Source: a virus
Reading direction: 5' to 3' (one strand)
Virus record (IMG/VR): IMGVR_UViG_3300025853_000046
Location: 26,823 to 90,822 of that record
DNA length: 64,000 nt
Below the pieces are notes generated by a model. The model saw nothing but the letters and a program-made list of their open reading frames with translations. It had not been told where the DNA came from and did not search any database. A program made the position numbers and the translations under genes. This document shows, one piece after another, positions 25,533 to 54,767 of this stretch (position 1 is its first letter; every line of letters begins with the position of its first letter).

Positions 25533-26717
25533 TTAAGCACCTCTGTTGTATTTGTCCATTAATTCGTGAACTTCATTCCATGACATTTCTGAAATGTTAT
25601 CGAAGTCCTCACTAAGTTGATTGGACACAGATTGAGTTTCTGCGGCCTTAGCGATAGTGTTGTTCTCAAGAGATTTCTTCAATTGAGAAAATTCTTCCTT
25701 AAGTGAAAGAACTGCGTCTGCGGCATTAAACTTGCTCTTAGCAATTTCATCTGCTTCGAGTGCAAGGTCTTTATTATATCGGGCTTCAAATTCAGCCTTA
25801 ATAACTTCGTATGCACGAGCCTCTTCTTTTTCAGCCTTGAATTGTTCATAGGCTTTTTCGATGTTTGACTTTGAAAGGTCAAGAGAATCAATAGATTCGG
25901 CCTTTGCTTCAACAAATTCCGAAAACTCGGCTTTCATTTCTCGACCCATCTTTTCTTCATCTTTCATTTCTTCAACATCATCATCATCATCAGATTCTGC
26001 TTTCATTTCTTCGCTGTCATAGTCTCCCATTTCAACGGACTCCTCTTCCATTTCATCCATCATCTCAAGTTCTTCCTCTTGTTCGAGGGTGTCCATTGTA
26101 TTCTTGAGAACCGTGGATTCACGGAGTTCAGCCATTACTTCATTAAACTCATTAAGAGCCTTTTCTATTTCTGTATTCATTTTATTATCCTCCTTTATTA
26201 GGTTAAATTTTGCTTCAGGGTTTATGCCCTCTTCGCATATGGTGATTTCATGTAATTCAAGTTTATCAATTTCTTTATAACTTCCGGTATCGGAGTCATA
26301 TTTATTTGTCTTGTTTATCGCCTGTCCACCTATTGAAAAAGAACGAAGATTACCCTTTCTTACATCACGAGCAACCTCCTTAGCCTTTTCAATATCATTT
26401 CTTAATTTTATCACCACAAAAAACCCTGTATCATCAACGCCTGTTTTTAGGACTTTACCATTGGAATCTGTATATTGGTCTACGACCTCTCCGACTTGAA
26501 CATTAGAATGTGTAATCATAACATTTCTATATCGGTCTTGTTTCATAAACTTATCAGCCGCTTCACGAATTGCGCCTAAAGTAATTTTATCATTTTGTTT
26601 ATCTACTACATCAACTGATGCGTAGCCAGCAATAACACATTCATTATTTTCTTTAAGAATAACGAATTCTCCACCGCTATTTGGCTCATCACCAAACATA
26701 GGAGTACTTAACTGCAT
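25533..26717 (-). CDS. Prohead protease fused to an acidic scaffold domain (394 aa)
   Basis: 'IAGYAS...VDKQND', 'H..VQVG', 'LRSFSIGG' and 'LHEITIC...INPEA' HK97-type protease motifs; C-terminal acidic coiled coil. Confidence 0.92.
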   Translation of the reverse strand: MQLSTPMFGDEPNSGGEFVILKENNECVIAGYASVDVVDKQNDKITLGAIREAADKFMKQDRYRNVMITHSNVQVGEVVDQYTDSNGKVLKTGVDDTGFFVVIKLRNDIEKAKEVARDVRKGNLRSFSIGGQAINKTNKYDSDTGSYKEIDKLELHEITICEEGINPEAKFNLIKEDNKMNTEIEKALNEFNEVMAELRESTVLKNTMDTLEQEEELEMMDEMEEESVEMGDYDSEEMKAESDDDDDVEEMKDEEKMGREMKAEFSEFVEAKAESIDSLDLSKSNIEKAYEQFKAEKEEARAYEVIKAEFEARYNKDLALEADEIAKSKFNAADAVLSLKEEFSQLKKSLENNTIAKAAETQSVSNQLSEDFDNISEMSWNEVHELMDKYNRGA

Positions 26718-39237: not shown

Positions 39238-39512
39238 TAACCAATCACCCTTTCATAAACTGTAACTTGGCGTCTACTAAACTGTTTTATTCTTTTTGTA
39301 TATTCTTTATTTTTTGACAAATAATAACTAAGTTCTCCTATTGTGGGGATTGTATCACGCCCAGAAACCTTTCTCCTCTCAACATCATCCCATATTAAAT
39401 CTAATATCATTCTGACACTTCTTTCTTCACCGTCTGCCATAATTTCATCAGTTATTTTTTTAGCCCTATTAGTTATACGAGTACCCTTTAATATTCCCCA
39501 AGCCTTCTTCAT
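39237..39512 (-). CDS. Small wHTH-like protein with W-ILK tag (MKKAWGILKG)
   Basis: Helix-helix-wing pattern; N-terminal motif. Confidence 0.5.
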   Translation of the reverse strand: MKKAWGILKGTRITNRAKKITDEIMADGEERSVRMILDLIWDDVERRKVSGRDTIPTIGELSYYLSKNKEYTKRIKQFSRRQVTVYERVIG

Positions 39513-42103
39513 CTGAATAGCCCCTTTACCTTGTAGATTATATCAGGGCTAACCCCAAATAGATAAGACAGTGTATTAAATGAATCATTAGATTCTACAA
39601 TACCCTCGATGTCACGAGCATATAAATCAATTTTATCTTCCTTAGCAATTAAATCTAATGCGTATTCGACATGCTCAACATTATCTGTTTGTAAAAATGC
39701 CTTGTAAATCATTTGGTTTTTATCATCCTTTAGTAAATCTAATGCCTCAATGTATGCTTTATACATAGCATCCTTATCCGTTAATTCTCTTTTAATTGTC
39801 AAGGGGCTATCATTCATTTCTCTTACGAGGTTTTTAAGTGAGGTTTCCATTTTATTGTCTAATGCGTATTGCTCAAAATCGGGGTCTTCAAGAACATCAA
39901 ATAGGCGAAGATTACCTAAAGTAAATTGTTTATTTTCATATTCTTTTATAGGTTTTCCTTCATACTCCACACTTTCTATAAGATTACCACTGGATTTTAA
40001 TAAGTCAAAAATAAATTTACCTAATGAATTGCGAATGTCTGAAGTAATTTTGGTAACTACCTCTCTTTTACTTTGCCCTTCATCTAAAACTAAGTCGGCT
40101 AAATATAAGTTATTAAAAATTGGTTCTACTTCCTGAAATATTTCAATCATTTCCGCTGGGCCTAATTGTCCGTAGTATTTTAGTTTCTCGAAAAAATTAG
40201 CAAGTGTATCTAAATCTTTTTTATCTAAATTGATATTTTTTCTTTTAACCATACTTCTTTTCATTCCAGCAAGAACGCTTTTTCTTGACTTAGTGGACAG
40301 TGAAATAATTTTCTTATAATTAGAGTCTTTGGTAAATTCAGGTGCATCATTGTGGAAGAAAAATCTTGGGTCTAATGTTTCGTAGTAGTAAGCATTTACA
40401 AGTTTAATTAATTCATCATAGATAAATATAAAATCTTGGTATTTTTTTTCAGGTTTTGATTCTGCAAACTTTCCAGCCGTAGAAGGATAACTACCCCCTC
40501 TTGTATATGCCGTTTGACCTGAACCTCTTAATCTCGCCCCTCTTGGGGCATTGATATTATACATAGATTCTGGTATAATATTTTTAATATCATTAATTAC
40601 TTTCATAGTATTTTTTACCATCTCATTGATAGTGTCCACATATTTAAAATAGTTATCAAAAGGAGTATCTTTCTTAGTAAATACTAATAAATCATCCTTT
40701 AGTTCTAACTCATAGTATGATAATACAAGTTGCTTGTGATTTAAACGACTAAGAAATGTTTTATTTTTAGTATCATCTATAATGGAAAATGTATATGATT
40801 CTCTTTCAGTGAAATCGCTTATCAATTCATCAGCAAAAGCATCAATGGCTTCTATCCTACTTTGAATTATCTCTTGTCTCACATTAGTTAATTGTTCAGT
40901 CATTTCTGATTTAATTTTATTTTTAATTCCATCGGCCAATTTCCAATCAATAAAAAAACCACCCTTTTTAAAAGCAGAAAGTAAGGCTAAGGGGTCTCCT
41001 ATTTTTTTAACCTTATTGATTTTTTGATTCGCTACCTCACCAACTTGTTCTGTTGGGTCTACTGAAGTTGTTGTAGTGGTTTGTGAACCTGTATCAGTAT
41101 CTTTAATATTAAGTTCTTCTCGTTGAGAAGTTTCACCACTACCTCTTGTAAATAGTTCTTGATATTCTCTTGTGTCTCCAGTTTTTGCTTGTAAAAAATC
41201 ACTGGCTAATTTAATCAATGTCACCTTGTCTTCATATTGGCTCATAGAAATATCACCTTTATATGTTACAGTAAATTTGGGCAATTTAATTCCACCCCTA
41301 CCTGTAAGTTTCTTTATAATAGACAATCTTACTTTATTAAAATCTTCAATATCTTTATACCCTAACAATTCTTCCTGAAACTTTTTATCAGCAAATGTAA
41401 TATTTAGTGCTGAATCATATGACACTTCTTGTGGAAATGGAAAAGTCTCATTACCTAACGAATTAAAAACGCTTTGTGTTTCATCCCAATATTCATAGAT
41501 TTTAATTCTATCATCAGAATTTTTTATATCATATTTTCTAAATAAATCTACGATACCCGATAAATCCTTAGTAGGTTTTAGTTCAACCTCTTCGTCTTCC
41601 CCTTCCATAGCACTAATTATAATATTAAAAAATCGCCCAACGCTCGGATATTTATTTGTAATTTCTGGAACATTAAGTTCTTGCATAACATCAGTAATCT
41701 CACTATCATTAACTGAAACTAATGTTAACCCGTTAAGTTCTTCGCCCATCTGTAAAACTTTGGACATTTTTTCAGCGGCGGAATATGATAATAGATTAAC
41801 ACTACTATTTTTATAAACTTCGGTATTACCTATTAGAATTGTAGGAGAACCGCTGGCAATATCCAATAAAATTAAAATATCTAAAAGTTCTTTAGGTAAA
41901 TTGAAACCAGCCGTTTTTGCTTTTTTAGATAACGATGTATAAAAATCAACCGTTACCTTTCTCGCTTTGGGGTTCTTTTCAGTTTTTTCCGGCCCTACTG
42001 TTCCTGCTAACTCGTAAATATTTGAGTATAATGGATGCTCTTGTATAAAATTATCTAACATTCTTAAATATTCATCTTCACTTACTATTTGCATTTTAAT
42101 CAC
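39509..42103 (-). CDS. Large hypothetical protein (864 aa)
   Basis: Long coupled ORF upstream of TerL; HTH-like extreme C-terminus. Confidence 0.6.
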   Translation of the reverse strand: MIKMQIVSEDEYLRMLDNFIQEHPLYSNIYELAGTVGPEKTEKNPKARKVTVDFYTSLSKKAKTAGFNLPKELLDILILLDIASGSPTILIGNTEVYKNSSVNLLSYSAAEKMSKVLQMGEELNGLTLVSVNDSEITDVMQELNVPEITNKYPSVGRFFNIIISAMEGEDEEVELKPTKDLSGIVDLFRKYDIKNSDDRIKIYEYWDETQSVFNSLGNETFPFPQEVSYDSALNITFADKKFQEELLGYKDIEDFNKVRLSIIKKLTGRGGIKLPKFTVTYKGDISMSQYEDKVTLIKLASDFLQAKTGDTREYQELFTRGSGETSQREELNIKDTDTGSQTTTTTSVDPTEQVGEVANQKINKVKKIGDPLALLSAFKKGGFFIDWKLADGIKNKIKSEMTEQLTNVRQEIIQSRIEAIDAFADELISDFTERESYTFSIIDDTKNKTFLSRLNHKQLVLSYYELELKDDLLVFTKKDTPFDNYFKYVDTINEMVKNTMKVINDIKNIIPESMYNINAPRGARLRGSGQTAYTRGGSYPSTAGKFAESKPEKKYQDFIFIYDELIKLVNAYYYETLDPRFFFHNDAPEFTKDSNYKKIISLSTKSRKSVLAGMKRSMVKRKNINLDKKDLDTLANFFEKLKYYGQLGPAEMIEIFQEVEPIFNNLYLADLVLDEGQSKREVVTKITSDIRNSLGKFIFDLLKSSGNLIESVEYEGKPIKEYENKQFTLGNLRLFDVLEDPDFEQYALDNKMETSLKNLVREMNDSPLTIKRELTDKDAMYKAYIEALDLLKDDKNQMIYKAFLQTDNVEHVEYALDLIAKEDKIDLYARDIEGIVESNDSFNTLSYLFGVSPDIIYKVKGLFR

Positions 42104-43775
42104 CTTCTTCCTGTAATGGTCTAAATTGTCTTAAAGCGGAAGGACTTAATGTTTTTAAGAAATCCCACGGGTCAAGATTTTGTTTATTAACCGAGACTGT
42201 TAAGTAATTGCCCTTGCTTTTTATTTCATCAAATGAAATACTTTTTATCCAATTTAGTAATTCCGTAGTAACACCTTGAACAATTGGTATTAGTATTTTT
42301 TCTACTGCTTCACTGATTTGAGTTTCTAATTCTTCGGCTTCTCGACTTAACGCTCTTATTGATTGGTCTTCTATTATTTCTTGAATTTCACTTAAGACAA
42401 AATTAATTTCTTCCAAACCTTCTACCCCGAATTTGCTTGCGAAGGAAATTAAATTTAAAAATTGCTCACCTTTGGCTCTCACTAAATCATCTTCCCCCTC
42501 CATAAATACGGGAGAATAATTTTGCGGTATTACAAACGGCGTTGGATTTTCTTGCATGTAATACGAAGTTAATAATTTCATAAATCTTAAATCGTTGAAT
42601 TGAGATGGAAGGTCTACTTGTGTAATATTTTTAAGACCTTCGTTTTCAATCCATTTATTAAAACTTTGGCGTTCAGTAGAATTTGCTTTTTTAGTATTTG
42701 CTATAAGTGCGTCTTCTGCTTCTTTCTTAGCCCCTGCGTCAATTACAAGTTTATTTGTCTCCTTGTCTCTTTGGGCAACAGTGACCCCTGCGACTGTAAA
42801 GATTTTTTGATTTTCACCTACCATTCTAAGTTGTCGCTTATATTCTGATGAAGCCCATTCGGGTATTCTTCGATTATTTTTTAAATCTAAACCTGTTCCG
42901 ATACGGGTTTTTTGAGATGTCTTAAATGTAAGTAAATTAGAAGTCAATGATTCAATTACAGCAGGTGTAGGTGAATCTCCTAATAGAATTATTCTTTTTG
43001 TCCAAGCCGCCTTCGATTCAAGATTTTTACCATTTTTTATAAAATCTGCAAAAGGGCCTTGTAAGTTTGTATCAGACCTGTTAATCATATGATTGAATAT
43101 CTTAATGATAGATTCAAAATCAGTTTTATTTTTAGTTAATATAATTTCTCTCGCTTGGCGATTAGAAAATTGCTGTTCCGTATCTTCAGGTTCGGTATGA
43201 ATATTATTTAATTGGGTTAAAAATTTAGTAGAAAATTCTTCTATGAGAGATTTGTCTAATTTTGCATATGCTTCATTATTAGGCTCTATTAATTGTAAAA
43301 GTCTTTTTGTTTCGTTATTTTGTTTCTTATTATTTTTACCTACTTCAACCGCCTTTAATTCACGAGCAGTTATCATAGAGTAGATTAGCGCAAGAGGATT
43401 ACCTTTAAGCAATTCTTCATAAATAGTTTGAATGTTGCTCTCAATCCATCTCAAGGGGTCTCCCTGCATTTTGTCTGCAAAGGTTTCTGTTTCGCTATAC
43501 TTGCGTTCTAATATTTTAGAAAACACAATAGGATAAAGTCTGTCATAAGTAGGCTGGGCTAAGGCTTTAATCTTCTTAGGGTTTCTTCCCCGCTGTTTAA
43601 TCATTTCAGCAAAAGACTTATCCTCATCAATAATAATTTCTCTTTCAAACCTTCTTAGGTTTGTAGGGCTAATTTCTTTTAAATTATCTAAATACTTAGT
43701 AGAAGGTTCTTTACCCCGCCGAGGATTTAATCCCCTACGGGCTTCATCTATATTCAGGTATTGCATGGCTATCAC
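42096..43775 (-). CDS. Hypothetical protein (559 aa)
   Basis: Long coupled ORF. Confidence 0.6.
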   Translation of the reverse strand: MIAMQYLNIDEARRGLNPRRGKEPSTKYLDNLKEISPTNLRRFEREIIIDEDKSFAEMIKQRGRNPKKIKALAQPTYDRLYPIVFSKILERKYSETETFADKMQGDPLRWIESNIQTIYEELLKGNPLALIYSMITARELKAVEVGKNNKKQNNETKRLLQLIEPNNEAYAKLDKSLIEEFSTKFLTQLNNIHTEPEDTEQQFSNRQAREIILTKNKTDFESIIKIFNHMINRSDTNLQGPFADFIKNGKNLESKAAWTKRIILLGDSPTPAVIESLTSNLLTFKTSQKTRIGTGLDLKNNRRIPEWASSEYKRQLRMVGENQKIFTVAGVTVAQRDKETNKLVIDAGAKKEAEDALIANTKKANSTERQSFNKWIENEGLKNITQVDLPSQFNDLRFMKLLTSYYMQENPTPFVIPQNYSPVFMEGEDDLVRAKGEQFLNLISFASKFGVEGLEEINFVLSEIQEIIEDQSIRALSREAEELETQISEAVEKILIPIVQGVTTELLNWIKSISFDEIKSKGNYLTVSVNKQNLDPWDFLKTLSPSALRQFRPLQEEGD

Positions 43776-43957
43776 TTAAGCAACATGTAAATTCCCAAAA
43801 TTCCACCTAAAACAATTATTACTTTTGGTAGTGCCTTTTGAATTAAAGCCTTATACTTTGCCTCTTGGCCTTCGGAAATAAGCCCCAAATCTTCTGCTAA
43901 TTCTACAATGTCTTCTGCAATATCAGCGGCATCTTCTATTTTATCTTCTGTACTCAT
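43772..43957 (-). CDS. Small protein with C-terminal transmembrane helix (61 aa)
   Basis: Acidic N-terminus and 'VIIVLGGILGIYMLLK'; TATAAATA boxes upstream. Confidence 0.6.
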   Translation of the reverse strand: MSTEDKIEDAADIAEDIVELAEDLGLISEGQEAKYKALIQKALPKVIIVLGGILGIYMLLK

Positions 43958-43999: not shown

Positions 44000-44425
44000 T
44001 TATTCGTTATCTAATTGATTTTTAAAACAAAACATATCCATGTATATTTCATTATATGTGCCTAATAATGTGCTGTAGGCTTCTGCTATTTCTACTCTAA
44101 AATCACGGGTAGTTGAGACATCGGATTGTTTAATTAGCGTTATTAGGTTCTTACAAACTTCAATTAATTCTTCAAACCTATCAATTCGCAGGTCGGTATC
44201 ATTAATGCACTCGTCTTCTTTTTCAAGAGTTTTTTGCCCTTCACGGTTTGCTACTGCTAATCTTTTGGCTTCACGCTTTTTTCTTTCGGCTAACGACTTA
44301 TCAGCCTTTTTTCTTTCGGCTACTATTTCTTCTATTGGGTTAATATCTGCGATATTTTTTCCATCCAAAGTTCTTTGTAGGCCAAATTTAGTTTGTTTTT
44401 TTCTTAAACCGTCTTGCCAAATCAT
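44000..44425 (-). CDS. Tagged hypothetical protein (MIWQDGLRK)
   Basis: Variant of the N-terminal motif. Confidence 0.55.
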   Translation of the reverse strand: MIWQDGLRKKQTKFGLQRTLDGKNIADINPIEEIVAERKKADKSLAERKKREAKRLAVANREGQKTLEKEDECINDTDLRIDRFEELIEVCKNLITLIKQSDVSTTRDFRVEIAEAYSTLLGTYNEIYMDMFCFKNQLDNE

Positions 44426-44667
44426 GCTGTAAATGGCCCCCTTCTTTTGCTTTCTGGTTTATGTGTATAGATGTCGCCATCGGTGTGAATGTAAATTTTC
44501 TTTTTTCTAACTAAATCGTTAACAATTCTTTTTAGAGTTTTACGGTCGGCAATACTTTTTAGATTCTTCATACCCAAAGCACCGCCTTCTTTTTTAATTT
44601 CTGCAAGAATTTTTTCTTCAATCTCACGGTCTGATTCTTTAGCCTTTAGTATATCTTCCCAACTCAT
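44422..44667 (-). CDS. Tagged wHTH-like protein (MSWEDILKA)
   Basis: True start ATG 44667; 'IEEKILAEIKKEGGALGMKNL...LVRKKKIY' wHTH pattern. Confidence 0.6.
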   Translation of the reverse strand: MSWEDILKAKESDREIEEKILAEIKKEGGALGMKNLKSIADRKTLKRIVNDLVRKKKIYIHTDGDIYTHKPESKRRGPFTA

Positions 44668-44671
44668 TTTA

Positions 44672-45025
44672 TCACTCTCTTTGTTTTCTATTATAATATG
44701 ATTGTTCTTCATCAATGGTAAGTGGTCTACCTTCTTCTCTAATAATATCTTGCATAGTCGGTTCACCCTTTCCTTGACTTGCATACATCTCAAAGTAATT
44801 ATCAACTATTGTTCTTGCGGGAATCTGTCTTTTAGGTTTAGGGGTAGGTTTTGGTTTAGGGGTGGGTGTGGGCTTAGGTGGTTCGGGCATATATCGGGAA
44901 GTGGGTTTTTCTCCTCTGAATTTATTCCTCGCAAATTTTGCCCTATCGTGAATTAATTTTCCAGCGTCATATGCGCTAAAACTTTTTTTTCGAGATTTCT
45001 TTTTTAGAATATCTTCCCAACTCAT
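44672..45025 (-). CDS. Tagged basic Pro-rich protein (MSWEDILKK)
   Basis: N-terminal motif; PKPTP linker. Confidence 0.6.
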   Translation of the reverse strand: MSWEDILKKKSRKKSFSAYDAGKLIHDRAKFARNKFRGEKPTSRYMPEPPKPTPTPKPKPTPKPKRQIPARTIVDNYFEMYASQGKGEPTMQDIIREEGRPLTIDEEQSYYNRKQRE

Positions 45026-45861
45026 TTTCCTTTCCTCCGTTTGTAAGTTTTACAAGCCGCACAAGTAGGGCGGCATCTTCTCTTTCTACCCTTTGAAGCA
45101 TCTTTTCTACCACAAGGTTTAGGGCCGTTTTTCTTTCCACATGAAGAACAGTCAATCCATCCTCCCTGTGTTTTCTTCCCTTTACCTTCCTTTCCACCTC
45201 TTCGAGAAAACCACCCATGTAAGCCTTCGGACTTCTCTCTCTTAAAGTTATCGCCACTTTGTAAAATATTTTCCCAAGATTTAGAAATATCTAAATACGC
45301 ATCGGCAAGCATAAGTCCTACTTTTTTACCTGCTTCTATATCACTCGGATAATGATTACCCATTTGAACACGGGAGAAAGAAATTTTTTCAGCCAAAGAG
45401 TTAAGTTCTTTTTTCTTATCGGGATATTTTTCACCGAGAACTTTAGCCAGCGCATGTGCTTCAATAGCATGGCCGCTTGGGAAAGAAGGTGTATCGTCTG
45501 TTGTTGTTATAGATTTAATTTCATCCGAAATTTCATATGGTCGCTTTCTACCATATTTCATTTTAAGCCTTATAGTATGAATGTCTACATCTTCAATAAA
45601 ATCTTCCCAATCCGAAATTTTCTCACCAACAACATCAACTAACATTTTATGATTATTCTTATCTAAATTTTCAATAGTTTTTTTATCTAAGTCTTGGTCT
45701 TTTATAATTTTTAAAACCTTTGGAAGTTCCTCTTCGTTATCAGGAAATGACAATTCAGGAATGTCCACTTCAAAGGAAGGTTTGGAATCAAGTAATTTTT
45801 GCTTACTCGCAGAAAGACTGTTCATCCATTTGGATTCTTCCTTGAGTATGTATTGCCACAT
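45022..45861 (-). CDS. Tagged PAP2-family phosphatase/haloperoxidase-like protein fused to a Cys-rich basic domain (MWQYILK)
   Basis: 'KMKYGRKRP', 'PSFPSGHA' and 'SRVQMGNHYPSD' PAP2 motifs; second tag-like 'SK|SWENILQ' before 'GLHGWF...WIDC...PCGR...CRP'. Confidence 0.8.
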   Translation of the reverse strand: MWQYILKEESKWMNSLSASKQKLLDSKPSFEVDIPELSFPDNEEELPKVLKIIKDQDLDKKTIENLDKNNHKMLVDVVGEKISDWEDFIEDVDIHTIRLKMKYGRKRPYEISDEIKSITTTDDTPSFPSGHAIEAHALAKVLGEKYPDKKKELNSLAEKISFSRVQMGNHYPSDIEAGKKVGLMLADAYLDISKSWENILQSGDNFKREKSEGLHGWFSRRGGKEGKGKKTQGGWIDCSSCGKKNGPKPCGRKDASKGRKRRCRPTCAACKTYKRRKGK

Positions 45862-45865
45862 TATA

Positions 45866-46030
45866 TCACTTCTTTTTTGAATTGCCCCAATTAGCCGCAC
45901 CCTTTTTACGACATTGAACTAAAGCACCAGAAGCATAGGCGGAAGGCCATTTTTTATAACGACTTCTTACCTTGCGATAACAAGCGTCTTTTTTTGTCTT
46001 AGATTTTTTACGCAATACATCGAACCACAT
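45866..46030 (-). CDS. Tagged small basic protein (MWFDVLRK)
   Basis: 'KDACYRKVRSRYKKWPSAYASGALVQCRKKGAANWG' resembles a small domain common in marine phages. Confidence 0.65.
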   Translation of the reverse strand: MWFDVLRKKSKTKKDACYRKVRSRYKKWPSAYASGALVQCRKKGAANWGNSKKK

Positions 46031-46031
46031 A

Positions 46032-46235
46032 TTATGCGCCTCTAATATTATATTTTCTAATAACATTTCTTAACGCTATTCTTTTTTTAGAGTCATTACT
46101 GACATGTGAAATGAGGGGGTTATTATATTCTTTTTTATATTCTTTAACTTGTTCAGGATTAAAGTGGTAGGTCTTACCATCAACGGAAAATTTTTTACCG
46201 ATAATTTTAATCTTTAAAATCTGAAACCATTCCAA
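46032..46235 (-). CDS. Tagged small protein (MEWFQILK, TTG start)
   Basis: N-terminal motif. Confidence 0.55.
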   Translation of the reverse strand: MEWFQILKIKIIGKKFSVDGKTYHFNPEQVKEYKKEYNNPLISHVSNDSKKRIALRNVIRKYNIRGA

Positions 46236-46236
46236 T

Positions 46237-46431
46237 TTAATCCCTCTCTTCTGTCTTCATGGGGCAATTAGGTTTAATTGGTAGAGGGGGTAAGTTCATA
46301 GGACACATGTTAAATTTTACGACACTTTTTTTACATCTTGGACAAACGCCCGTTTTTTTAACACCCTTTTCGATACCTAATTTTTGATAGGCGAAGAGGT
46401 CTTTTTCTTTAATTAAGTCTGTCCATGTCAT
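46237..46431 (-). CDS. Tagged small Cys-rich protein (MTWTDLIK)
   Basis: CPRC...C...C. Confidence 0.55.
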   Translation of the reverse strand: MTWTDLIKEKDLFAYQKLGIEKGVKKTGVCPRCKKSVVKFNMCPMNLPPLPIKPNCPMKTEERD

Positions 46432-46634
46432 TCTTTCTCACTCCATAAGTTTGCCCATAGTTTATGTCTCTCGTAATTTTCTTCCAAGTAGTCAATAACC
46501 TCGTCTTTTGACGGGGCGTTATAACCAAGACTATCTGTAAGGTGTTTATAAATGTTTTCAAATAAACTGTCTTTGGTTATATAAGAATCGAGCATTTCAC
46601 GCCAATCGAGTTTAAGAATATTTTGCCACTTCAT
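46428..46634 (-). CDS. Tagged small wHTH-like protein (MKWQNILK)
   Basis: N-terminal motif. Confidence 0.55.
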   Translation of the reverse strand: MKWQNILKLDWREMLDSYITKDSLFENIYKHLTDSLGYNAPSKDEVIDYLEENYERHKLWANLWSEKE

Positions 46635-47251
46635 TGTCTCACCCTCTCTCTTCTTACAAAGGAAGCCGCTATTCTATCTATAAGGGGTCTAAGAACTCTT
46701 ATAAGTATTTCTTGAACATAATTAAATTTCTCATCAGTCATGCCAATAATATTTTTAATTTGTGTCACTCTAAAAATAATATCTTCTATCATAAGATTTA
46801 CAAAGTCAATTCTAAACTGTCTATCGCTAAAATCTCTATCTATATATGCTTGCATTTCTAATGTAAGTATCAATTCAAAATGTTTCTTAAGAGTTCTTTC
46901 CATTTCAGGTTGTAGTTCTCTCCATATAGTCATAAATTCTTCATTAGATAATATATTAATATCTATGTCGTTTATTTGACTCATAAATTCTATAAGATTT
47001 GTCATAGTTTCTATTCCCAACTTTTGTAATTCGGGTTCTGTATTATATTGGGCTTGGTGAGTTGTTTCATGTGCTAATGACCTTGCTAATTGTTCAGGTG
47101 TAAGTTCGGGGTTTCCTGAAATAGTCATTGAATCATCTCTAAAACCATAAGTTGCGTTATGTGCTTCATCAGGTTGTATTTTAATATTAGGTGCAGGTCT
47201 ATCACGGTCTACTGGCTTGAAAGAAATTTTTAGAATTTCAAACCAATTCAT
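46631..47251 (-). CDS. Tagged zincin-like metallopeptidase (MNWFEILK)
   Basis: HExxH 'LAHETTH' with downstream 'EMQAY'. Confidence 0.6.
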   Translation of the reverse strand: MNWFEILKISFKPVDRDRPAPNIKIQPDEAHNATYGFRDDSMTISGNPELTPEQLARSLAHETTHQAQYNTEPELQKLGIETMTNLIEFMSQINDIDINILSNEEFMTIWRELQPEMERTLKKHFELILTLEMQAYIDRDFSDRQFRIDFVNLMIEDIIFRVTQIKNIIGMTDEKFNYVQEILIRVLRPLIDRIAASFVRRERVRQ

Positions 47252-47256
47252 AAAAA

Positions 47257-47424
47257 TCATTCCCCTTTGGTTCTTTTTTTCCATTTAATTTCAGGAAATA
47301 GTTTTTTAAAGTCCTTTTCAAATTGTCTAGCATCTCGTAGAAATTGTTTTTGTTCCTCAGTTAAATCGGAAAACTTCAATTTCTTTTTTTTCTCTATCTT
47401 TTTTATTTTATTCTTCCAACTCAT
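47257..47424 (-). CDS. Unlisted tagged basic protein (MSWKNKIK..., 55 aa)
   Basis: Translated by hand; GGAG SD; fills the gap between neighbours. Confidence 0.6.
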   Translation of the reverse strand: MSWKNKIKKIEKKKKLKFSDLTEEQKQFLRDARQFEKDFKKLFPEIKWKKRTKGE

Positions 47425-47436
47425 ACTAATGTCTCC

Positions 47437-47787
47437 TTATTTTTGATTCTCGTTTAAATATTGTAAAGCCTTTTTAGCAGGTTCAATCGTATAATATTCC
47501 CATTGTTTAGGGTTATAGTATCCCAATTTATTAGCGTATTTGTTTAAAGTTGCTCTTATTTCATTAATGGTAGTTAATTCGTCTAAAAGATTCACGGCGT
47601 TTCGCAACCCTTGTGGAGTTGTTATTCCAATACCTTGAGGCACTTTATCCAATTCATTATTTGCTTCTGTAGAGTATAACATTTTGATATTATAGATAGT
47701 TTCTTTTTCTTGTGTTGGTTGTTCAGATTTTTTATTTCTCCTAAACCTACCAAAGGGTGCTTTTCTTAATTGTTCTTCCCAACTCAT
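47437..47787 (-). CDS. Tagged hypothetical protein (MSWEEQLRKA)
   Basis: N-terminal motif. Confidence 0.6.
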   Translation of the reverse strand: MSWEEQLRKAPFGRFRRNKKSEQPTQEKETIYNIKMLYSTEANNELDKVPQGIGITTPQGLRNAVNLLDELTTINEIRATLNKYANKLGYYNPKQWEYYTIEPAKKALQYLNENQK

Positions 47788-47807
47788 GCTAATCTCTCCT
47801 GCATTTT

Positions 47808-48200
47808 CTAAATATTTGCTTCTTCCACAACTGCTCTTGCGTTAAACTCATAAAGCATTTGAAATGTATATCCTTCAACAACTTCTTCTATATTTAGTTT
47901 CATAGCCTTAGCCATTAAACCTATCATAATAGAATATAAAAGACTCTCATCAACAGAACCACCAAAACCATCTCCGAAATTTATAGCAAGCGATATTTCT
48001 TCTTGTTCTTCTTCTGTTAAGTTATCAAAGTAATTCAAAACCTTTTGCTTTGCTTCTCTAACCTTTCTTCTCCTAACATCATCAAACTTAATATATGGCG
48101 CATAGTTTTTCTCATCAAAAACCATATTTGAATAAGTAAAATCTTCTTCAATAAATTTACTAAAATCTGGAAGGGATTTTAATATTTTTTTCCAACTCAT
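47808..48200 (-). CDS. Tagged hypothetical protein (MSWKKILKS)
   Basis: N-terminal motif. Confidence 0.6.
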   Translation of the reverse strand: MSWKKILKSLPDFSKFIEEDFTYSNMVFDEKNYAPYIKFDDVRRRKVREAKQKVLNYFDNLTEEEQEEISLAINFGDGFGGSVDESLLYSIMIGLMAKAMKLNIEEVVEGYTFQMLYEFNARAVVEEANI

Positions 48201-48859
48201 GCTAATCTCTCCGCTATATCGTCTCGTATCTCAGTCCATACTTCGGGGTATCTTTCTATAAGAACCTTTTGTATGACTTCAATCTGCTGAATTACCACAG
48301 TTTCCTCTCTTTTATGCACTAATTTGCCCTTAAATTCCAGCGCATACTTCAAAGATTCACGAATTTCTTTGCTTAATTTTACCAAAGAATCCACGGTTTT
48401 GAAGTCTAATTCGTCATTATCTATGATAAATTGTTGAATTTTACCCTGTAACATTGAAACATTTTGCGAAAGTAGGTCAATTTCGTTCAATTCTACACGG
48501 GCTACATCTAATGCCGCCGATTGTTGAACGATAGGTTTGAGATGTTTCTTCATATGTAAGTTAATTGAATCTACCCCGACATCTAAATATTCTGCAACCT
48601 TGCTCGGTTTCATATGTCCATCTACAATTGCCGCTTCTAAATCTTTTCTATTTGGGGCTACACACATAGCACACTTATCGTTTGAATTATCGTGATAAGC
48701 ATTCAAATGTTGTTGCATATGCTTTCTTGTAGTTCCGGCTCTCCAACCTTCTTCTCTATCAAGAGCATTTGCTTCCATGCGACCTTCAAGAATTTCTATT
48801 TCTAAGTTATCCCTATCAGGATGATTACATAGAGGGCAAGATTTACGAACTTTACGCAT
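48197..48859 (-). CDS. Putative terminase small subunit (tandem CxxC-HTH domains plus coiled coil)
   Basis: Two 'C..C..P.R..LE..I..G...H...H' repeats followed by oligomerisation-type helices; upstream of TerL in the same operon. Confidence 0.5.
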   Translation of the reverse strand: MRKVRKSCPLCNHPDRDNLEIEILEGRMEANALDREEGWRAGTTRKHMQQHLNAYHDNSNDKCAMCVAPNRKDLEAAIVDGHMKPSKVAEYLDVGVDSINLHMKKHLKPIVQQSAALDVARVELNEIDLLSQNVSMLQGKIQQFIIDNDELDFKTVDSLVKLSKEIRESLKYALEFKGKLVHKREETVVIQQIEVIQKVLIERYPEVWTEIRDDIAERLA

Positions 48860-49403: not shown

Positions 49404-50518
49404 TTTATCACCTTCATTAAATTACTAAATACTGTCATAGCATCGAGTTGCTTGAGCGTAATACCGTCAGTTTGAGTGCTGTTCGGAACTTTGTATGTAT
49501 TCATTTCTTCACCCATAACTTCACGGACAATTTTATTTAGAGTCTTATTATTTGCTGGAAACTTAAGAGACACATTGTTAATTGTTTCGTAATTCACCAC
49601 TTCGTCAATTTCAATTTTTTCACCATCAATTTGAACAGTGCAATTTTCAACAAGTATCTTTAAATCGGACTGATTAATAGTGAATGTCTTTCTACTAATT
49701 GCTTGGTTAAGTCTGTCCTTTACTGCAATTTTAGTTCCTCTTGCGTAGATACTTCCATCGGCCATAACTTCTCGTATTGCTTTGTTAAGTCCTGTAATTG
49801 TAGCCATTTGAACTGCGCCAGTCTTCGCACCTAAATTAGCATTTACTGATAAATTAACAACAGGAGGTGCTTTTTGTTTATCAATTAATTCTATGACCCC
49901 TGCTATTAATACCCTTAGACTATTTTCAGGGCCAAAAATTGCTTGCCATAGTGGGGGCTTTGCTTTACCCAGTGGAACTGTATTTTCAGTTTCACCTTGA
50001 ACAGACCAATTTTTACCTTTAGGATTCACACTTGAAAATTCCTGCCCCGTTTGTTTAGCATTCCATGTGCGGTAATCCCAATAGGCGGGAGTTAAAAAAT
50101 GACCTCTCGAAAAACCCCTTTTAATTTTAGGTTTTTCATCACCCTTTGGTGCTTTAAAATCTACCATTGTTCTAAAAACTATATTCTGCGGATTTCTTTT
50201 TGGGTTCTTTTCTAATGCCCCCAAGTCATCTATTAGTTTTTTTATATCTAATATGTGTTCTTCTAACATTATAGGTTCATCTATAATTTCAATTAAATCG
50301 AGGAGAATATCACCTGCACCAATAAATCCCTTGACCCCTCGACCTATTGTTTGTTTTCCGTGATTCATAACTGTTTGATATACTGACTTAGCATTAGCCT
50401 TTCCGGTATTGGCATCAGGTTTTCCAGTAATGCCATATTCAGAATTTTTACTTGGCCCCCAAAATTTTTTATAATTTGCTATAAGTTGTAAGGCGGCAGG
50501 TTTATCCCATTCAAACAT
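49400..50518 (-). CDS. Hypothetical protein (starts MFEWDK)
   Basis: ORF track; start adjusted. Confidence 0.55.
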   Translation of the reverse strand: MFEWDKPAALQLIANYKKFWGPSKNSEYGITGKPDANTGKANAKSVYQTVMNHGKQTIGRGVKGFIGAGDILLDLIEIIDEPIMLEEHILDIKKLIDDLGALEKNPKRNPQNIVFRTMVDFKAPKGDEKPKIKRGFSRGHFLTPAYWDYRTWNAKQTGQEFSSVNPKGKNWSVQGETENTVPLGKAKPPLWQAIFGPENSLRVLIAGVIELIDKQKAPPVVNLSVNANLGAKTGAVQMATITGLNKAIREVMADGSIYARGTKIAVKDRLNQAISRKTFTINQSDLKILVENCTVQIDGEKIEIDEVVNYETINNVSLKFPANNKTLNKIVREVMGEEMNTYKVPNSTQTDGITLKQLDAMTVFSNLMKVIK

Positions 50519-52040
50519 CTTCTTCTTCCTCCTCATCTTCACTGAATGTAGGGCGGTGTAGTGTCTCAAAACCTTCGCTTTGCGAAGTCGTTGCTTCTTT
50601 TGCCAGTTGTAGTATTTCCATTACTGATAAGGGAACGCCTATTTTTTTACCTTCTTCGATAAAACTCTTTAGAGCAATTTCCCAACTTTCCATGTTGTCG
50701 GTAGAAGACTTTTTTAGATATTCTGTCCACTTCATGTTATTATCAAGAATGGCAATACTACTTAAGTTCTTCTGACTTTTATAAAATTCATATGTATCGG
50801 GATTGCCTACATTTTTTACCGTGTGGGTATTATCTGGTTGTAAAATTATTTCTAAATAGCCCCCAAGATACCCATATACATTTTTATGTTCAGTTTCTTC
50901 AAACCCTAAAATCATTGGAAAATTATATCTTTCATAATAATAGGGGTAATCTACCAAAAAATTAAATAGGGTTTTTATATAACTATAACCTATTGATGAG
51001 TCGTCAAATCCACTTTCTTCTCTTACAATTTTCGCTATCCCTGTAAAAGTTAATTCCCTGCCGTCTTTATACAGAACTGAGTTACGGAATGATTTTCCCT
51101 GTGACATACCAAACTTAGCATCATCAAGAGGTGTTAAATTTGCACTAGCAAAAAAAGGTGGTTCATCTATTTTAAATGCTATTATTCTCCGCATAGTCGT
51201 AAAGTCATTCATATTAACCCAATCATCAGGTTTTACCCAATCAGAATTATAAAAATGTTCTTCGGATGATTCTTTATAAAATAATTTATTTGTTGAACTA
51301 TAATCAACATCCCAATTGCTAAGTCTACCTATCCTAAATTTATCTGTATTTATAGGGTCTACATAAAATTCAGTTTCTGCTCTAAACTGGGGTTCAAATG
51401 ACATATCCTCTATAACAAAACCTGCCTGACAAGTAGGACATTTACCTTCATCGTTTTTTATATCTATTCTAAACTTTGTGTCCTCAAACGGACATTCAAT
51501 ATATGTGTCCTGATTCAGGTAATCACTTATTCCTTCAATGTTTTTCTGAGTACTCCTATCATCAAGTAGTGTAAGAATTAGCCCTCCTAAATTATCTCCC
51601 GCTGGTAACTCTTCGGATAATACAATGCAAATCTTAACACCTTCTTCAGTACTGACTTCGTAGCACCCCTCGTTCATTTCCCTTGTTTTTATACTATAAT
51701 TCTTACCTGAAGACCCTTTAACAGAAACATTGTCTTCTACCCATTCTACTCCACTGTTAGAATCTACTATGCCTGATACAAATTCCATAGAGCGTGTAAA
51801 GGCATTAACCCATTCTTTGAGTTTATCTTGTCTTTGCCCGCTTTCCAATGTATCTCTCAACGGGGGTATTCGAGATGTAATTTGTCTACCTGTTTTTTCT
51901 TCTGTCATCACAGAAAGTTTATTTCCAAGAAATCCATAAATACTTCCAGTAAATCCCCGTTCATTCACAAGACTATAAAAATTACCTTCCTCTCTATTCA
52001 TCGGTGGGGGGTTCGATTTTAATATGTGTTCCCAAGACAT
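50511..52040 (-). CDS. Tagged protein (MSWEHILKS) with internal tag copies
   Basis: Internal 'MKWTEYLKKS' and 'MESWEIALKS'; CxxxC/CPTC. Confidence 0.6.
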   Translation of the reverse strand: MSWEHILKSNPPPMNREEGNFYSLVNERGFTGSIYGFLGNKLSVMTEEKTGRQITSRIPPLRDTLESGQRQDKLKEWVNAFTRSMEFVSGIVDSNSGVEWVEDNVSVKGSSGKNYSIKTREMNEGCYEVSTEEGVKICIVLSEELPAGDNLGGLILTLLDDRSTQKNIEGISDYLNQDTYIECPFEDTKFRIDIKNDEGKCPTCQAGFVIEDMSFEPQFRAETEFYVDPINTDKFRIGRLSNWDVDYSSTNKLFYKESSEEHFYNSDWVKPDDWVNMNDFTTMRRIIAFKIDEPPFFASANLTPLDDAKFGMSQGKSFRNSVLYKDGRELTFTGIAKIVREESGFDDSSIGYSYIKTLFNFLVDYPYYYERYNFPMILGFEETEHKNVYGYLGGYLEIILQPDNTHTVKNVGNPDTYEFYKSQKNLSSIAILDNNMKWTEYLKKSSTDNMESWEIALKSFIEEGKKIGVPLSVMEILQLAKEATTSQSEGFETLHRPTFSEDEEEEEDV

Positions 52041-52065: not shown

Positions 52066-52764
52066 TTACCAACGCCTTAATAATTTTTTAGGTATGTATT
52101 CCCCTAAATGTCCATTTAAATCATCTATTAAATCACCATATCTCATTTTTATGGGGGGCCATTCTGTTTCGTCAATCTGTTCTACATGTCTCCATATTTG
52201 TTCTAAAAGTGTGTCCTTGTAATCCTGTTCATTTGAATCATAAATAGTTATAAAATCATTTATTGAGTGCATTTTAGTTTCCGGCATGTGTCTTTCTACA
52301 TATGCGGGAAGAGTAAGAATTGCAGGTAATTGGTTATTTTTACTTGCGAGAAGAAGTGTAACCATAAAATCCCCATTTGTCATCACATTATTAGCCTTTA
52401 CGCAAAAACGCATTCCAGTTGAGTCCATTGTTGGGAATGTATCTCCCGCCTTTTCACCAATACCTCCTTTATTATTCCATACTTGACGCATAAACGGCAT
52501 TTTTAATGTAAAAGGCACTCCCTCTATATCGAATTTAAAAACAAAATTTAAACCATCTCTTTTAATTTCATCAAAGGGTTTCATAAATTCTAAAGTTTTT
52601 TTATAAACAAGGGAAAACTGTGGAGGCTTGTCAAACATAGATGAAAGAACTTGGTCTTCTTCCTCTTTAGTTATTTCCCGTATTGGTGTAAATTCTCGGA
52701 AGGAAATTAGTATCTCTTGAGCCGTATCTCGACTTCTATCCTTTAATATATCTTGCCAACCCAT
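52066..52764 (-). CDS. Tagged protein (MGWQDILK), first gene of the late operon
   Basis: GGGGTG SD; N-terminal motif. Confidence 0.6.
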   Translation of the reverse strand: MGWQDILKDRSRDTAQEILISFREFTPIREITKEEEDQVLSSMFDKPPQFSLVYKKTLEFMKPFDEIKRDGLNFVFKFDIEGVPFTLKMPFMRQVWNNKGGIGEKAGDTFPTMDSTGMRFCVKANNVMTNGDFMVTLLLASKNNQLPAILTLPAYVERHMPETKMHSINDFITIYDSNEQDYKDTLLEQIWRHVEQIDETEWPPIKMRYGDLIDDLNGHLGEYIPKKLLRRW

Positions 52765-52883
52765 TATTGCACCCCCTTGTTGAAAAAATGGCCGGGAATT
52801 TTTTTGGGACTAGCGAAAAAAAATTTTTCTTTTTTATTCCATTCCCAGCGAAAGTTTATTTTCGACATTATTATTATCTCCCT

Positions 52884-53278: not shown

Positions 53279-53933
53279 GATTATTATGATGGGCTTTTTC
53301 TATTTAATGTTTTTTAATTAAAAAAATTCCCAAAGTGAACCATATGGTAAGGAAAGTTAGTGAAGGTCACTCGTCTTCATCGTTAAACACTTTCACACCT
53401 CCTGCGGTTTCATTATGCTAACGCATGAACCATATGGTTCTATGAAATAGATAGTTTTATCTTCAGAATTTTAAAGCATGGGTTGGATTGAGGGTGGGAA
53501 AGATGGTTTGGAGTTCTTAATATAAAAGTTGCACCTTTTATATAGGTGAGGTGGGCAATTTCGGCTATACCTTTATTTGTCATAGCCAAGCCCTACCATA
53601 TGGTAATAATAATTTGTAGAAAGACCTTAGATAAAAAAACAAAAAAAATAACGGGAAAATACTTTAAGACCGACCTTTCACAGCCGCCATCTTTAATCCT
53701 GACAAACAAAAGTTTAACAAAAACGAAGCCAATTAAGAAAATTGAGTATTTTTACTGGATAAACCCGCTATCTCTTTTAAGGGAGTAGGAACGGGCTTTA
53801 CACCCGTTTGTCTTAGTTCTTTTAGGGAATCACTAAGAATATTCTATATATCTTTATATTTCATACACTAAGTATAAGCATATAGGCGTTAAACAATCCT
53901 ACCTGTTTTTTACCGCTTCCACCCTCCACCAAC

Positions 53934-54767
53934 TCACTGTATTTCTTGCCATTTACCATTCCAACTTCGACCGTTGAGAATCCAACGATAGTTTTTTTGA
54001 TAAATATGCACATTGTCGAAACCATTTAGTCTTTCCTTTGTAGTTACGGTTTCCCAACCACCGGATGAAATAAAGAAACCATGACAATCCTTGTAAGCAA
54101 TCAAATTACCAAAAAGAAACAATTCACACTTCCATGAAGAGGGGTAATTCTCTACACATGAATACTTAACTTCAGTATTGCTTTTCTTGAAGTTTCGATT
54201 ATAGGTAAATGCCTGTATTGCTTGTCTTGTAATTTTTTTCATTCTTCACTCGCCTCCTTTGTCTGCCTGTCCATCTCTTGAACAACTTTCAAAGCCATAT
54301 CTACTCTTTTCCAATCTTCCCAAAGAGCATCTGCTAAAGCAGAAAGTTCTTCTAAGTCCATTTTAATTAAATCAGCCACTACAAATTTTTCTGGGTATTT
54401 CATTCTTCTTCCTCCTCTGGCACATAAACGGTTTGTATTATTCCACCCGTTATATTTTGTTTATGAAAACAAGCGGTATCGCAATAATACATCATGTGTT
54501 GATTAGGGTCAAGTTTTGTTTCACACCATTTACAATTAGTATAAGGCTTATCAACATACCCTTTTCCTAAAGGTGCAACTGGGCCAATTCTCATCATGCG
54601 TTCATCTCCTGTAATTGTTGAGAGATTTGTTTTAGTGCAAGAATGAGTTCTTTTTCCAACTCTTCTTGACTATCAGCACTGACACGGAGTTCATCAATAA
54701 TGAACTTCTCGTATCGGTTCTGTTTTACTTTAATTACAAACTTCGGTTCTCGCTTTTTCCAAAACAT
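53934..54767 (-). CDS. Four-gene mini-operon (54594-54767, 54400-54597, 54239-54403, 53934-54242)
   Basis: ATGA-coupled small ORFs, one with CxxC..YC...C; promoter at 54790-54826. Confidence 0.55.

Follow-up and report, generated by a model that had tools for sequence, protein, structure and literature searches.

The array described here lies in a 64,000-nt stretch of DNA (the window) from a complete 90.8-kb virus record (IMGVR_UViG_3300025853_000046, positions 26,823-90,822). Twelve genes are arranged on the minus strand at 44.0-48.2 kb between a conserved 220-aa gene (the anchor gene) and a conserved 61-aa gene, and all of them start with the peptide M-x-W-x-x-I-L-K, referred to below as the tag. 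Neighbouring genes of the array either overlap or have gaps of no more than about 20 nt. The features of the locus, listed from the anchor gene onwards, are as follows.

48197..48859, minus strand: conserved 220-aa anchor gene ("TerS-like", a tentative label); ORF kept in 12 relatives
48192..48212, minus strand: junction repeat copy 1, anchor-gene 3' end plus ATG-AGT-TGG of c130; exact 21-mer
47808..48200, minus strand: cassette c130, ORF of 130 aa, MSWKKILK..
47779..47799, minus strand: junction repeat copy 2, intergenic SD plus start of c116; exact 21-mer
47437..47787, minus strand: cassette c116, ORF of 116 aa, MSWEEQLRK..
47416..47436, minus strand: junction repeat copy 3, SD plus start of c55; 21-mer with 2 mismatches
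47257..47424, minus strand: cassette c55, 55 aa, MSWKNKIKK..; missing in relative L130
46631..47251, minus strand: cassette c206, ORF of 206 aa, MNWFEILK.., with an HExxH motif
46428..46634, minus strand: cassette c68, ORF of 68 aa, MKWQNILKLDWR..
46237..46431, minus strand: cassette c64, ORF of 64 aa, MTWTDLIK..
46032..46235, minus strand: cassette c67, ORF of 67 aa, TTG start, MEWFQILK..
45866..46030, minus strand: cassette c55b, ORF of 54 aa, MWFDVLRK..
45022..45861, minus strand: tagged PAP2-family phosphatase, 279 aa, MWQYILK..; Pfam PAP2, E 3.7e-13
45009..45028, minus strand: 20-nt repeat copy 1, start of c117; exact 20-mer, left crossover zone of the c117 indel
44672..45025, minus strand: cassette c117, 117 aa, MSWEDILKKK..; missing in relatives L001 and L017
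44651..44670, minus strand: 20-nt repeat copy 2, start of c81; exact 20-mer, right crossover zone of the c117 indel
44422..44667, minus strand: cassette c81, ORF of 81 aa, MSWEDILKAK..
44000..44425, minus strand: cassette c141, ORF of 141 aa, MIWQDGLRK.., final tagged gene of the array
43772..43957, minus strand: conserved untagged 61-aa gene, which closes the variable slot and follows the array in most relatives

Sizes in the array run from 54 to 279 aa, and no similarity could be detected among the cassette bodies, which include a PAP2 phosphatase, an HExxH protein and small basic proteins. The HExxH protein, c206, has no family in Pfam, PHROGs, PADLOC or Atlas. In two relatives (L186 and L187) the 61-aa gene stands directly after the anchor gene with no array between them.

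Magroviruses are among the most abundant archaeal viruses of the surface ocean, and to our knowledge neither they nor their hosts can be cultured. The genome of the window encodes a head module (TerL, portal, S78 protease and SU10-like capsid protein) and an archaeal-type replication module (PolB, RFC-like AAA and primase-like proteins). An ATP-dependent ligase is located inside the structural block (26760-28850), an RNR fragment at 63032-64000, and Cpn60 and tRNA-Leu are also encoded. The gene between TerL and portal (36465-37886) gave no match in a Pfam search. The published description of magroviruses reports a head module of caudovirus type as well as replication genes of archaeal type (such as PolB and the RFC clamp loader), an ATP-dependent ligase within the structural module, and a nuclease gene between TerL and portal; group B magroviruses additionally have RNR, a GroEL-type chaperonin and tRNA-Leu (PMC5434244). 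Because its gene content agrees with this description, the virus of the window is a magrovirus, i.e., a tailed virus of marine group II archaea, and is group-B-like.

The anchor gene, which the preliminary description labelled as a putative TerS (small terminase), is located 9 kb away from TerL, and the C-terminus of its product, IAERLA, is kept in 12 relatives. The product had no match in Pfam, PHROGs or PDB sequences. Its AF2 model (pLDDT 68) contains two small helical N-terminal domains with long helices after them, and a Foldseek search with this model gave a best E-value of 2.1, the G20C small terminase appearing only at E 7.4.

The preliminary description had named two repeats in this region, and both have been confirmed. 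The 21-mer CCAACTCATGCTAATCTCTCC is present in exact copies at 47779-47799 and 48192-48212 and with two mismatches at 47416-47436, and none of 100 shuffles gave any match to it. Exact copies of the 20-mer ATATCTTCCCAACTCATTTT are found at 44651-44670 and 45009-45028, and a third copy with three mismatches (52748-52767) is the start of another tagged gene. Every copy reads on the minus strand as SD plus ATG-AGT-TGG at a gene start. The copy at 48192-48212 does overlap the 3' end of the anchor gene, the last codons of which are AERLA and stop, and the copy at 47779-47799 is intergenic, both as first described. The first cassette takes its SD and start from the last 12 nt of the anchor gene, GGAGAGATTAGC, plus ATGA. 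A repeat search of the region returned seven 25-nt copies of the tag start and three 46-nt copies of the junction. The identity of the two 20-mers is largely as expected because both genes encode MSWEDI, about 30% being the expectation from codon usage for two such genes. No local inverted repeats, hairpins or terminators were found at the junctions, the minus-strand terminator scan being one for bacterial-type signals only.

The tag is not limited to this array. The strict pattern is found in 17 minus-strand genes and in no plus-strand gene, and about 20 tagged genes are present overall, distributed over several arrays and including large structural-module proteins; the tag is confined to late-strand genes. 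The tag is preserved at the protein level, and its codons for I, L and K follow the synonymous usage of the genome. A similar motif is present elsewhere in the head module:

25560..25586, minus strand: tag-like motif MSWNEVHEL near the C-terminus of the prohead protease/scaffold protein

Among 80 relatives for which loci were fetched, [EN]MSWxE[VIA]H is conserved in most of those with a recovered protease/scaffold C-terminus, and comparison shows that the tag resembles this conserved motif at the protease/scaffold tail. The leader of the capsid protein, ..[ILM][LM]K-[AS], is also conserved in most of the 80; the residue following the K of the tag is variable, unlike K-[AS] of this leader. By analogy with the capsid-targeting sequence of T4 internal proteins, the tag may load proteins into the procapsid, a reading to which we give slightly better than even chances. 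It would then define a set of proteins that are probably delivered into the host along with the DNA, and that are for this reason candidates for early host take-over or counter-defence functions.

Gene content and breakpoints were compared in relatives that are assembled metagenomic contigs throughout (96 non-redundant loci; 18 others were dropped as repeats of loci already in the set). Gene content is far from invariant, and the slot between the 220-aa and 61-aa genes holds 0-13 tagged genes among the 96 relatives. In the closest relative, L130, the flanks are 96-97% identical to those of the window. The body of c130 (48176..47801) has no counterpart there and two other cassettes are in its place; homology stops at 48177, the end of the c130 tag, and restarts at 47800. 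Homologs of c130 are found elsewhere on nine contigs with 78-100% identity, and their free tag positions differ. Cassette c55 is missing from L130 by a crossover inside ATGA[G/A]TTGG, with repeat copy 3 (47416-47436) as the left boundary of the indel; at the L130 junction the sequence that lies left of c55 in the window, through ATGAGTTGG, is fused to the sequence on its right from TTTGAA. Cassette c117 is exactly missing from L001 and L017, where the flanks are 97% identical and the crossover lies inside a 20-26-nt repeat. The same cassette is 96% identical (110/114 aa) to a gene of relative L157, where it belongs to an array upstream of the anchor gene and the anchor proteins are 71% identical; the common segment is 621 bp long and its right end is in the tag of the next gene (44651..44670). 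This comparison shows lateral transfer of c117 between lineages.

Other cassettes have also changed place. Orthologs of c116 in L130 and L017 occupy other array positions and have altered tag residues. Cassette c206 directly follows the anchor gene in L003 and L004, and elsewhere its upstream sequence is anchor-end-like. Depending on the lineage, cassette c68 lies downstream or upstream of the anchor gene, members of the c81 family stand directly before or directly after it in other lineages, and c67 is variably present among close relatives. Cassette c55b is 78-89% identical in lineages with an anchor protein only 61-63% identical and 70-74% identical in some close relatives. Comparison with the relatives shows gain, loss, replacement and inter-lineage transfer of genes with breakpoints exactly in the junctions. 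The preliminary description had proposed that cargo genes are gained and lost by recombination at the tag-encoding junction, and the related genomes support this across 44-48.2 kb, the named repeats coinciding with the breakpoints of c130, c55 and c117.

Clean indels behave similarly over the whole set. Both ends fall at -20..+30 of a tag ATG in 25 of 45 unique indels from the 96 loci, a zone that holds 3.1% of positions; as all array genes are tagged, any surviving gene-sized indel ends near a tag, so that this signal may be due in part to selection and alignment ambiguity. The overlaps measure 0-42 bp, the offset is about equal at both ends in most cases, and the crossover points lie between about -16 and +15, counted from the ATG. 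Cassettes that are orthologous but differ in context have background identity upstream of the ATG and reach the level of the body by about codon 6. Their homology breaks off precisely at the ATG or at codons 2-5, so that each takes over the RBS, start codon and first tag codons already in place, in agreement with the earlier proposal that RBS and tag are acquired in one step.

These data make it likely that the locus is a hypervariable late-gene array shuffled by short-homology exchange at tag junctions. Each gene carries a nearly identical SD, ATG-x-TGG and tag codons, which provides 10-40 bp of homology at every gene boundary, and the breakpoints at the junctions imply a moving unit that begins at about codon 2-5 in one tag and stops at the ATG of the following gene. 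Such a unit receives the RBS, start codon and first tag codons present at the site and supplies the RBS for its downstream neighbour. Co-replicating genomes may exchange such units through recombination at short homologies or through template switching, with general recombination functions rather than a site-specific recombinase and possibly by way of small circles. A search for a RadA-like recombinase gave none that could be confirmed, a point against this reading.

An unlikely alternative is that the repeats are inert in recombination, and that the tag is kept for protein function while random illegitimate indels are filtered by selection for whole-gene events. The genes of the array are all tagged and tightly packed, the DNA identity of the tag is mostly due to identical amino acids, and SD+ATG microhomology also marks the ends of some indels that lie outside the array or in a lineage without tags (L044), all of which would fit inert repeats. 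However, identity between adjacent junctions continues for 6-17 nt into the non-coding DNA before the ATG, and does so 12-fold more often than between non-adjacent ones. Adjacent unrelated tagged genes share at least six identical upstream nucleotides in 10.5% of pairs vs 0.9% of non-adjacent pairs (Fisher p = 4e-16, a value inflated because the loci are not phylogenetically independent). The overlaps of up to 42 bp with equal offset at both ends, and the local copies of the anchor 3' end with their lineage-specific variants, also argue against inert repeats.

Movement of the cassettes by a dedicated, integron-like site-specific system with an unrecognised recombinase has a still lower probability. 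Promoterless cassettes in a single orientation, seemingly polar insertion at one array end and the many genes of the genome without known family could be read in its favour. The preliminary description had seen no recombinase in the window, and this holds for the whole genome, in which neither tyrosine recombinases (PF00589, with positive controls) nor serine recombinases (PF00239) were detected. The junctions moreover have no attC-like inverted repeats, and the variable crossovers (about -16 to +15) and overlaps (0-42 bp) fit homology rather than a fixed cleavage site. Growth of the array within the locus from one ancestral tagged gene, through tandem duplicates that diverged fast and left the repeats as a relic, is about as improbable or slightly more so. 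The g232 family does have 1-4 copies in relatives and families 13, 15, 55 and 60 are repeated, but the cassette bodies are dissimilar, of differing types and sizes (54-279 aa), and the same cassette is found in different arrays across lineages, as c117 (96% vs 71% for the anchor protein) illustrates. Least probable of all are assembly errors in which contigs are mis-joined at short repeats, for although the relatives are all metagenome assemblies, the repeats are mostly 10-40 bp and the final k-mers of common assemblers are longer, c130 is found on nine contigs, and some of the 18 dropped duplicate loci differ in sample or record name, suggesting that one arrangement was assembled independently more than once.

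Within the preferred reading of short-homology exchange, the array end adjoining the anchor gene has features of its own, as it carries decaying copies of the anchor 3' end. The last 12 nt of the anchor gene (two mismatches at most) recur before the second cassette in 49% of loci, before the third in 24% and before later cassettes in 0-5%; of 189 tagged genes located on the upstream side of the anchor gene, none is preceded by them. The recurring 12-mer follows lineage-specific variants of the anchor-gene end. The gradient is compatible with polar entry but is no proof of it. A simple crossover inside the tag is insufficient by itself to explain this duplication of the anchor 3' end. New cassettes would enter preferentially at the 220-aa-gene end. 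Tentatively, the boundary after the 220-aa gene could be a polar gene-capture site, integron-like but without an integrase, at which the junction would be at once recombination site, RBS with start codon and first residues of a capsid-loading tag. Any gene arriving at such a site would immediately be expressed late and carried within the virion, while older cassettes would be displaced downstream and their copies of the junction would degenerate. Were the 220-aa gene to encode a small terminase, with a packaging site close by, terminase-made DNA ends could drive entry at this end of the array. The locus offers a sequence-level rule for where the accessory genes of magroviruses turn over, and this rule could help to sort metagenomic ORFans into functional classes.

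Several known systems resemble this array. Arbiol et al. (2010; PMC2839356) have described promoter-early stem-loop (PeSL) cassettes in hyperplastic regions of the T4-type phages RB49 and phi1, where non-essential small ORFs are bordered by short conserved sequences. When close relatives are compared, the crossovers of insertions, deletions and replacements fall in these sequences, and no dedicated recombinase takes part; mini-circles have been demonstrated, and the authors liken the system to integrons (PMC2839356). The magrovirus array is similar in that each variable ORF is flanked by a short conserved sequence inside which indels and replacements between close relatives cross over. However, the magrovirus element consists of RBS, start codon and coding sequence of an N-terminal peptide and the PeSL element of promoter and stem-loop terminator; the magrovirus genes belong to one late operon, in which they overlap or are spaced by about 20 nt at most and no hairpins or terminators were found, and the host is an archaeon. 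In T-even phages, as described in PMC3012670 and PMC2839356 with reference to Repoila et al. (1994; PMC395341), the internal proteins (IPs) are highly diverse, unrelated small proteins whose sole common part is a short N-terminal capsid targeting sequence, and the IP loci are very polymorphic, with flanking conserved short elements thought to drive shuffling. In the virus of the window, proteins that are otherwise unrelated likewise begin with a common short peptide and are encoded near the head genes. The magrovirus tag differs in its sequence, which is unrelated to that of T4, in its presence on about 20 genes of several arrays with large structural-module proteins among them, and in that the DNA coding for the tag itself contains the recombining homology. 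Integrons are also arrays of promoterless cassettes in a single orientation, and the magrovirus evidence is compatible with entry at one preferred end, beside a conserved gene; unlike integrons, the magrovirus genome has no integrase and no attC-like hairpins, and crossover positions vary. Lambdoid phages have short common sequences at gene boundaries, which have been proposed to channel homologous exchange of modules. Those sequences are located between functional modules and encode no common peptide tag, unlike the magrovirus junctions. The breakpoint evidence at tag junctions is new. Overall, the T4-type principle, by which short conserved elements channel modular shuffling, would be extended to archaeal viruses, and in a new form, since the sequence that recombines codes for a protein-sorting tag.

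Twelve consecutive genes on the minus strand of the window start with the peptide M-x-W-x-x-I-L-K or a near variant, here called the tag. Tagged small genes are referred to as cassettes and named by length (c130 has 130 aa), and the features concerned are as follows.

44000-48200, minus strand: array of the 12 tagged genes
48197-48859, minus strand: conserved 220-aa gene, here the anchor gene
50511-52040: tagged gene outside the array
52066-52764: tagged 232-aa gene outside the array
16338-17180: larger tagged gene in the structural block
17373-18374: larger tagged gene in the structural block
18377-19183: larger tagged gene in the structural block
29507-31840: larger tagged gene in the structural block
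48192-48212: exact copy of a 21-mer, overlapping the 3' end (..AERLA*) of the anchor gene
47779-47799: second exact copy of the 21-mer, intergenic
47416-47436: copy of the 21-mer with 2 mismatches
44651-44670 and 45009-45028: exact copies of a 20-mer

By the strict pattern, the whole genome contains 17 tagged genes, all of them on the late strand. The repeat copies were first reported in a preliminary description made from the sequence alone, and all of them are confirmed here, as is their minus-strand reading: every copy combines a Shine-Dalgarno sequence with an ATG and the opening codons of a gene. The 21-mer had 0 matches in 100 shuffles. An independent repeat search of the region recovered seven 25-nt copies of the tag start and three 46-nt copies of the junction.

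The preliminary description also proposed that cargo genes enter or leave by recombination at these tag-encoding repeats, gaining a ribosome-binding site (RBS) and the tag together. Relatives were gathered through the 220-aa anchor protein, from viral contigs first and from metagenomes second; 96 loci were left after removal of redundancy, and all comparisons are between assembled contigs. Gene content among these relatives is far from invariant. In the 96 loci, 0 to 13 tagged genes occupy the slot that runs from the anchor gene to a conserved untagged 61-aa gene, and the cassette families in it are mostly rare or unique. The cassette c130 has no relative in viral contigs, and none of the 96 loci contains it.

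The closest relative, locus L130, has an identical anchor protein and flanks that are 96–97% identical. Its homology with the window through the anchor gene halts at 48177, where the tag of c130 has its final codon, and restarts at 47800, the first base of the junction of the second 21-mer; two different cassettes lie in L130 between the matching points. The cassette c55 is also absent from L130, where the junction follows the left flank of the window through ATGAGTTGG and then its right flank from TTTGAA. Loci L001 and L017 lack c117 in flanks of 97% identity, and the left and right flanks of the window meet inside aaaATGAGTTGGGAAGATAT at their single junction. Breakpoints thus coincide with all three repeat sets, as had been predicted. 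In L130 and L017, a different gene directly precedes the c116 ortholog and shares its first ~22 codons with c116 (window 47720-47800; L130:7355-7435; L017:9786-9853) over 68–81 nt of 94–95% identity, followed by divergence. Junction duplications can therefore extend well past the 8-residue tag, making chimeric N-termini.

The same pattern was seen in a DNA-based survey of unique clean indels across the 96 loci, limited to those with a flank identity of 85% or more. Both ends fell within -20 to +30 of a tag ATG in 25 of 45 such indels, and these zones cover 3.1% of positions. The end overlaps ranged from 0 to 42 bp, mostly with about equal offset at both ends. At least 6 identical nt upstream of the ATG were shared by 10.5% of pairs of adjacent unrelated tagged genes vs 0.9% of non-adjacent pairs from the same locus (Fisher p = 4e-16, a value inflated by the relatedness of the loci). 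Several clean indels among relatives involve no tags; they fall in a repeat-rich stretch (53300-57300 in the window) lying upstream of the tagged genes, and some have overlaps of 12–15 bp. Relatives carry between one and four tandem copies of the tagged 232-aa gene (e.g., L005:4926-6980), all joined by an identical ..GGTAAT-ATG-GGT-TGG junction, and one 1.3-kb two-gene indel has both ends exactly on tag ATGs.

Orthologous cassettes with different upstream neighbours provided 124 pairs for comparison. Identity stayed at background right up to the ATG, was intermediate at codons 2–5 and from about codon 6 equalled that of the gene body. Taken with the breakpoints, this profile indicates that the mobile unit starts within the tag and ends at the start codon of the next gene. 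An incoming cassette adopts the RBS, start and first tag codons of the resident, in agreement with the earlier idea of a joint gain. The c130 family shows the same adoption at the protein level: its bodies are about 90% identical, and the free tag positions read KK, KN, ED, KD, QN or ES.

Evidence also exists for transfer between lineages and between arrays. The closest relatives of this virus lack c117, which is 96% identical (110/114 aa) to a gene of L157. The anchor protein of L157 is only 71% identical, and the c117 counterpart there belongs to an array upstream of the anchor gene. The island of DNA common to both measures 621 bp at 88% identity and stops inside the following gene's tag, precisely at the 44651-44670 repeat. 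The cassette c55b is 78–89% identical in lineages with 61–63% anchor identity and only 70–74% identical in some close relatives. Depending on the lineage, families such as c68, c81 and a PAP2-family phosphatase gene are found either downstream or upstream of the anchor gene.

Cassette junctions show polarity at the anchor gene. Its last 12 nt (GGAGAGATTAGC in the window) recur with at most 2 mismatches in front of the second cassette in 49% of 51 loci; the figure drops to 24% for the third and 0–5% for later cassettes, and is zero among the 189 tagged genes located upstream of the anchor gene. The recurring 12-mer follows lineage-specific variants of the anchor end such as GGAGAAATTACA. The gradient and these variants together indicate that the 12-mers are local copies of the anchor end, the youngest lying beside the anchor gene. 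Such a distribution fits repeated entry of cassettes at the anchor boundary, each entry duplicating the junction. One crossover within the tag fails to account for this duplication, which might instead arise by template switching or by three-molecule exchanges returning through Shine-Dalgarno microhomology.

The preliminary description saw no recombinase in the window, and this holds for the complete genome, where neither a tyrosine nor a serine recombinase was found. Crossover points vary within the junction, and searches of the junctions for hairpins and terminators found none. Together these features fit homology-guided exchange and not a site-specific system. A RadA-like ATPase and a RecB-type protein have been reported for all magroviruses (PMC5434244, PMC5628999). 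Neither was confirmed in this genome, in which the Rad51 Pfam model had no match; a 302-aa protein with a weak AAA_24 match is no more than a candidate for the ATPase.

The codons for I, L and K vary in line with usage across the genome, which rules out that the tags have been homogenised as DNA; by the same evidence, selection acts on the tag peptide. The sole over-used tag codon is AGT for Ser at position 2, before W (82% vs 28% genome-wide), which may reflect a translation-start preference or common descent of the junctions. A possible role for the peptide comes from the structural block. The protease/scaffold protein ends in ..EMSWNEVHELMDKYNRGA and carries MSWNEVHEL in its tail (25560-25586), and the capsid-protein leader has ..SNILK-AA at its end (25454-25465). 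Eighty relatives with capsid-protein identity of 46–93% were fetched, and motifs were counted only where the region was recovered; most of these kept the tail motif [EN]MSWxE[VIA]H and the leader motif [ILM][LM]K-[AS]. These likenesses support, and do not prove, that the tag mimics the capsid-binding tail of the scaffold and putatively loads proteins into the procapsid. Because the residue that follows the K of the tag is variable, a distinct protease site at that point is not supported.

Little could be assigned by function. For the anchor gene, labelled a putative TerS in the preliminary description, no usable evidence of identity came from Pfam, PHROGs, a PDB sequence search, an AF2 model or Foldseek. 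A function could be given to one cassette, the PAP2-family phosphatase, a Pfam match to which PADLOC, PHROGs and the Atlas added nothing, and the structure model of c130 (pLDDT 48) was too poor for a structure search. BLASTP revealed no similarity between c55b and the PAP2 gene or between c206 and g389.

The parent virus record has 90,822 bases and is rated complete. It encodes TerL, portal, an SU10-like major capsid protein, a tail tube protein and an S78 prohead protease fused to a scaffold-like acidic tail, with an ATP-dependent ligase within the structural block. Replication genes include a family-B polymerase, an RFC-like clamp loader, a Cpn60 chaperonin and a primase-like protein; an RNR fragment and a tRNA-Leu are also present. 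Judged by gene content, this is the set published for magroviruses, group B in particular (PMC5434244). No cultured phage is close; the best TerL match is 26% identical. In nine loci with anchor proteins 33–35% identical (L041–L049), 1 tagged ORF was found in the 16 kb around the anchor, and the tag system is therefore restricted to part of the magrovirus radiation. The late genes of 559 and 864 aa after the array (39509-43775) are 25–31% identical in some relatives, despite anchor and 61-aa proteins 95–98% identical to those of the window, and 95–96% identical in L017. This divergence amounts to whole-gene allele replacement within an otherwise near-identical backbone. A search with g559 as the query returned one locus only.

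Overall, the comparisons of contigs support cassette exchange at the tag junctions. Modular shuffling as such is already known; the new elements here are the breakpoint map and the polarity observed at the anchor gene, and the magrovirus literature searched nowhere mentions the tag or these cassettes. The array is not an integron, because it has no integrase and no attC. The nearest parallel is found in the PeSL cassettes of T4-type phages, whose ORFans have short conserved regulatory elements on their flanks. Comparison of close relatives places the crossovers within these elements, and mini-circles have been demonstrated (PMC2839356). Also close are the T-even internal-protein loci, which are described in the passage of PMC3012670 citing Repoila 1994 as highly polymorphic loci whose diverse proteins have only a capsid-targeting sequence in common. 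The present array differs from both systems in that the shared homology consists of the RBS together with the tag's own coding sequence, the genes are packed tightly into a single late operon and the host is archaeal.
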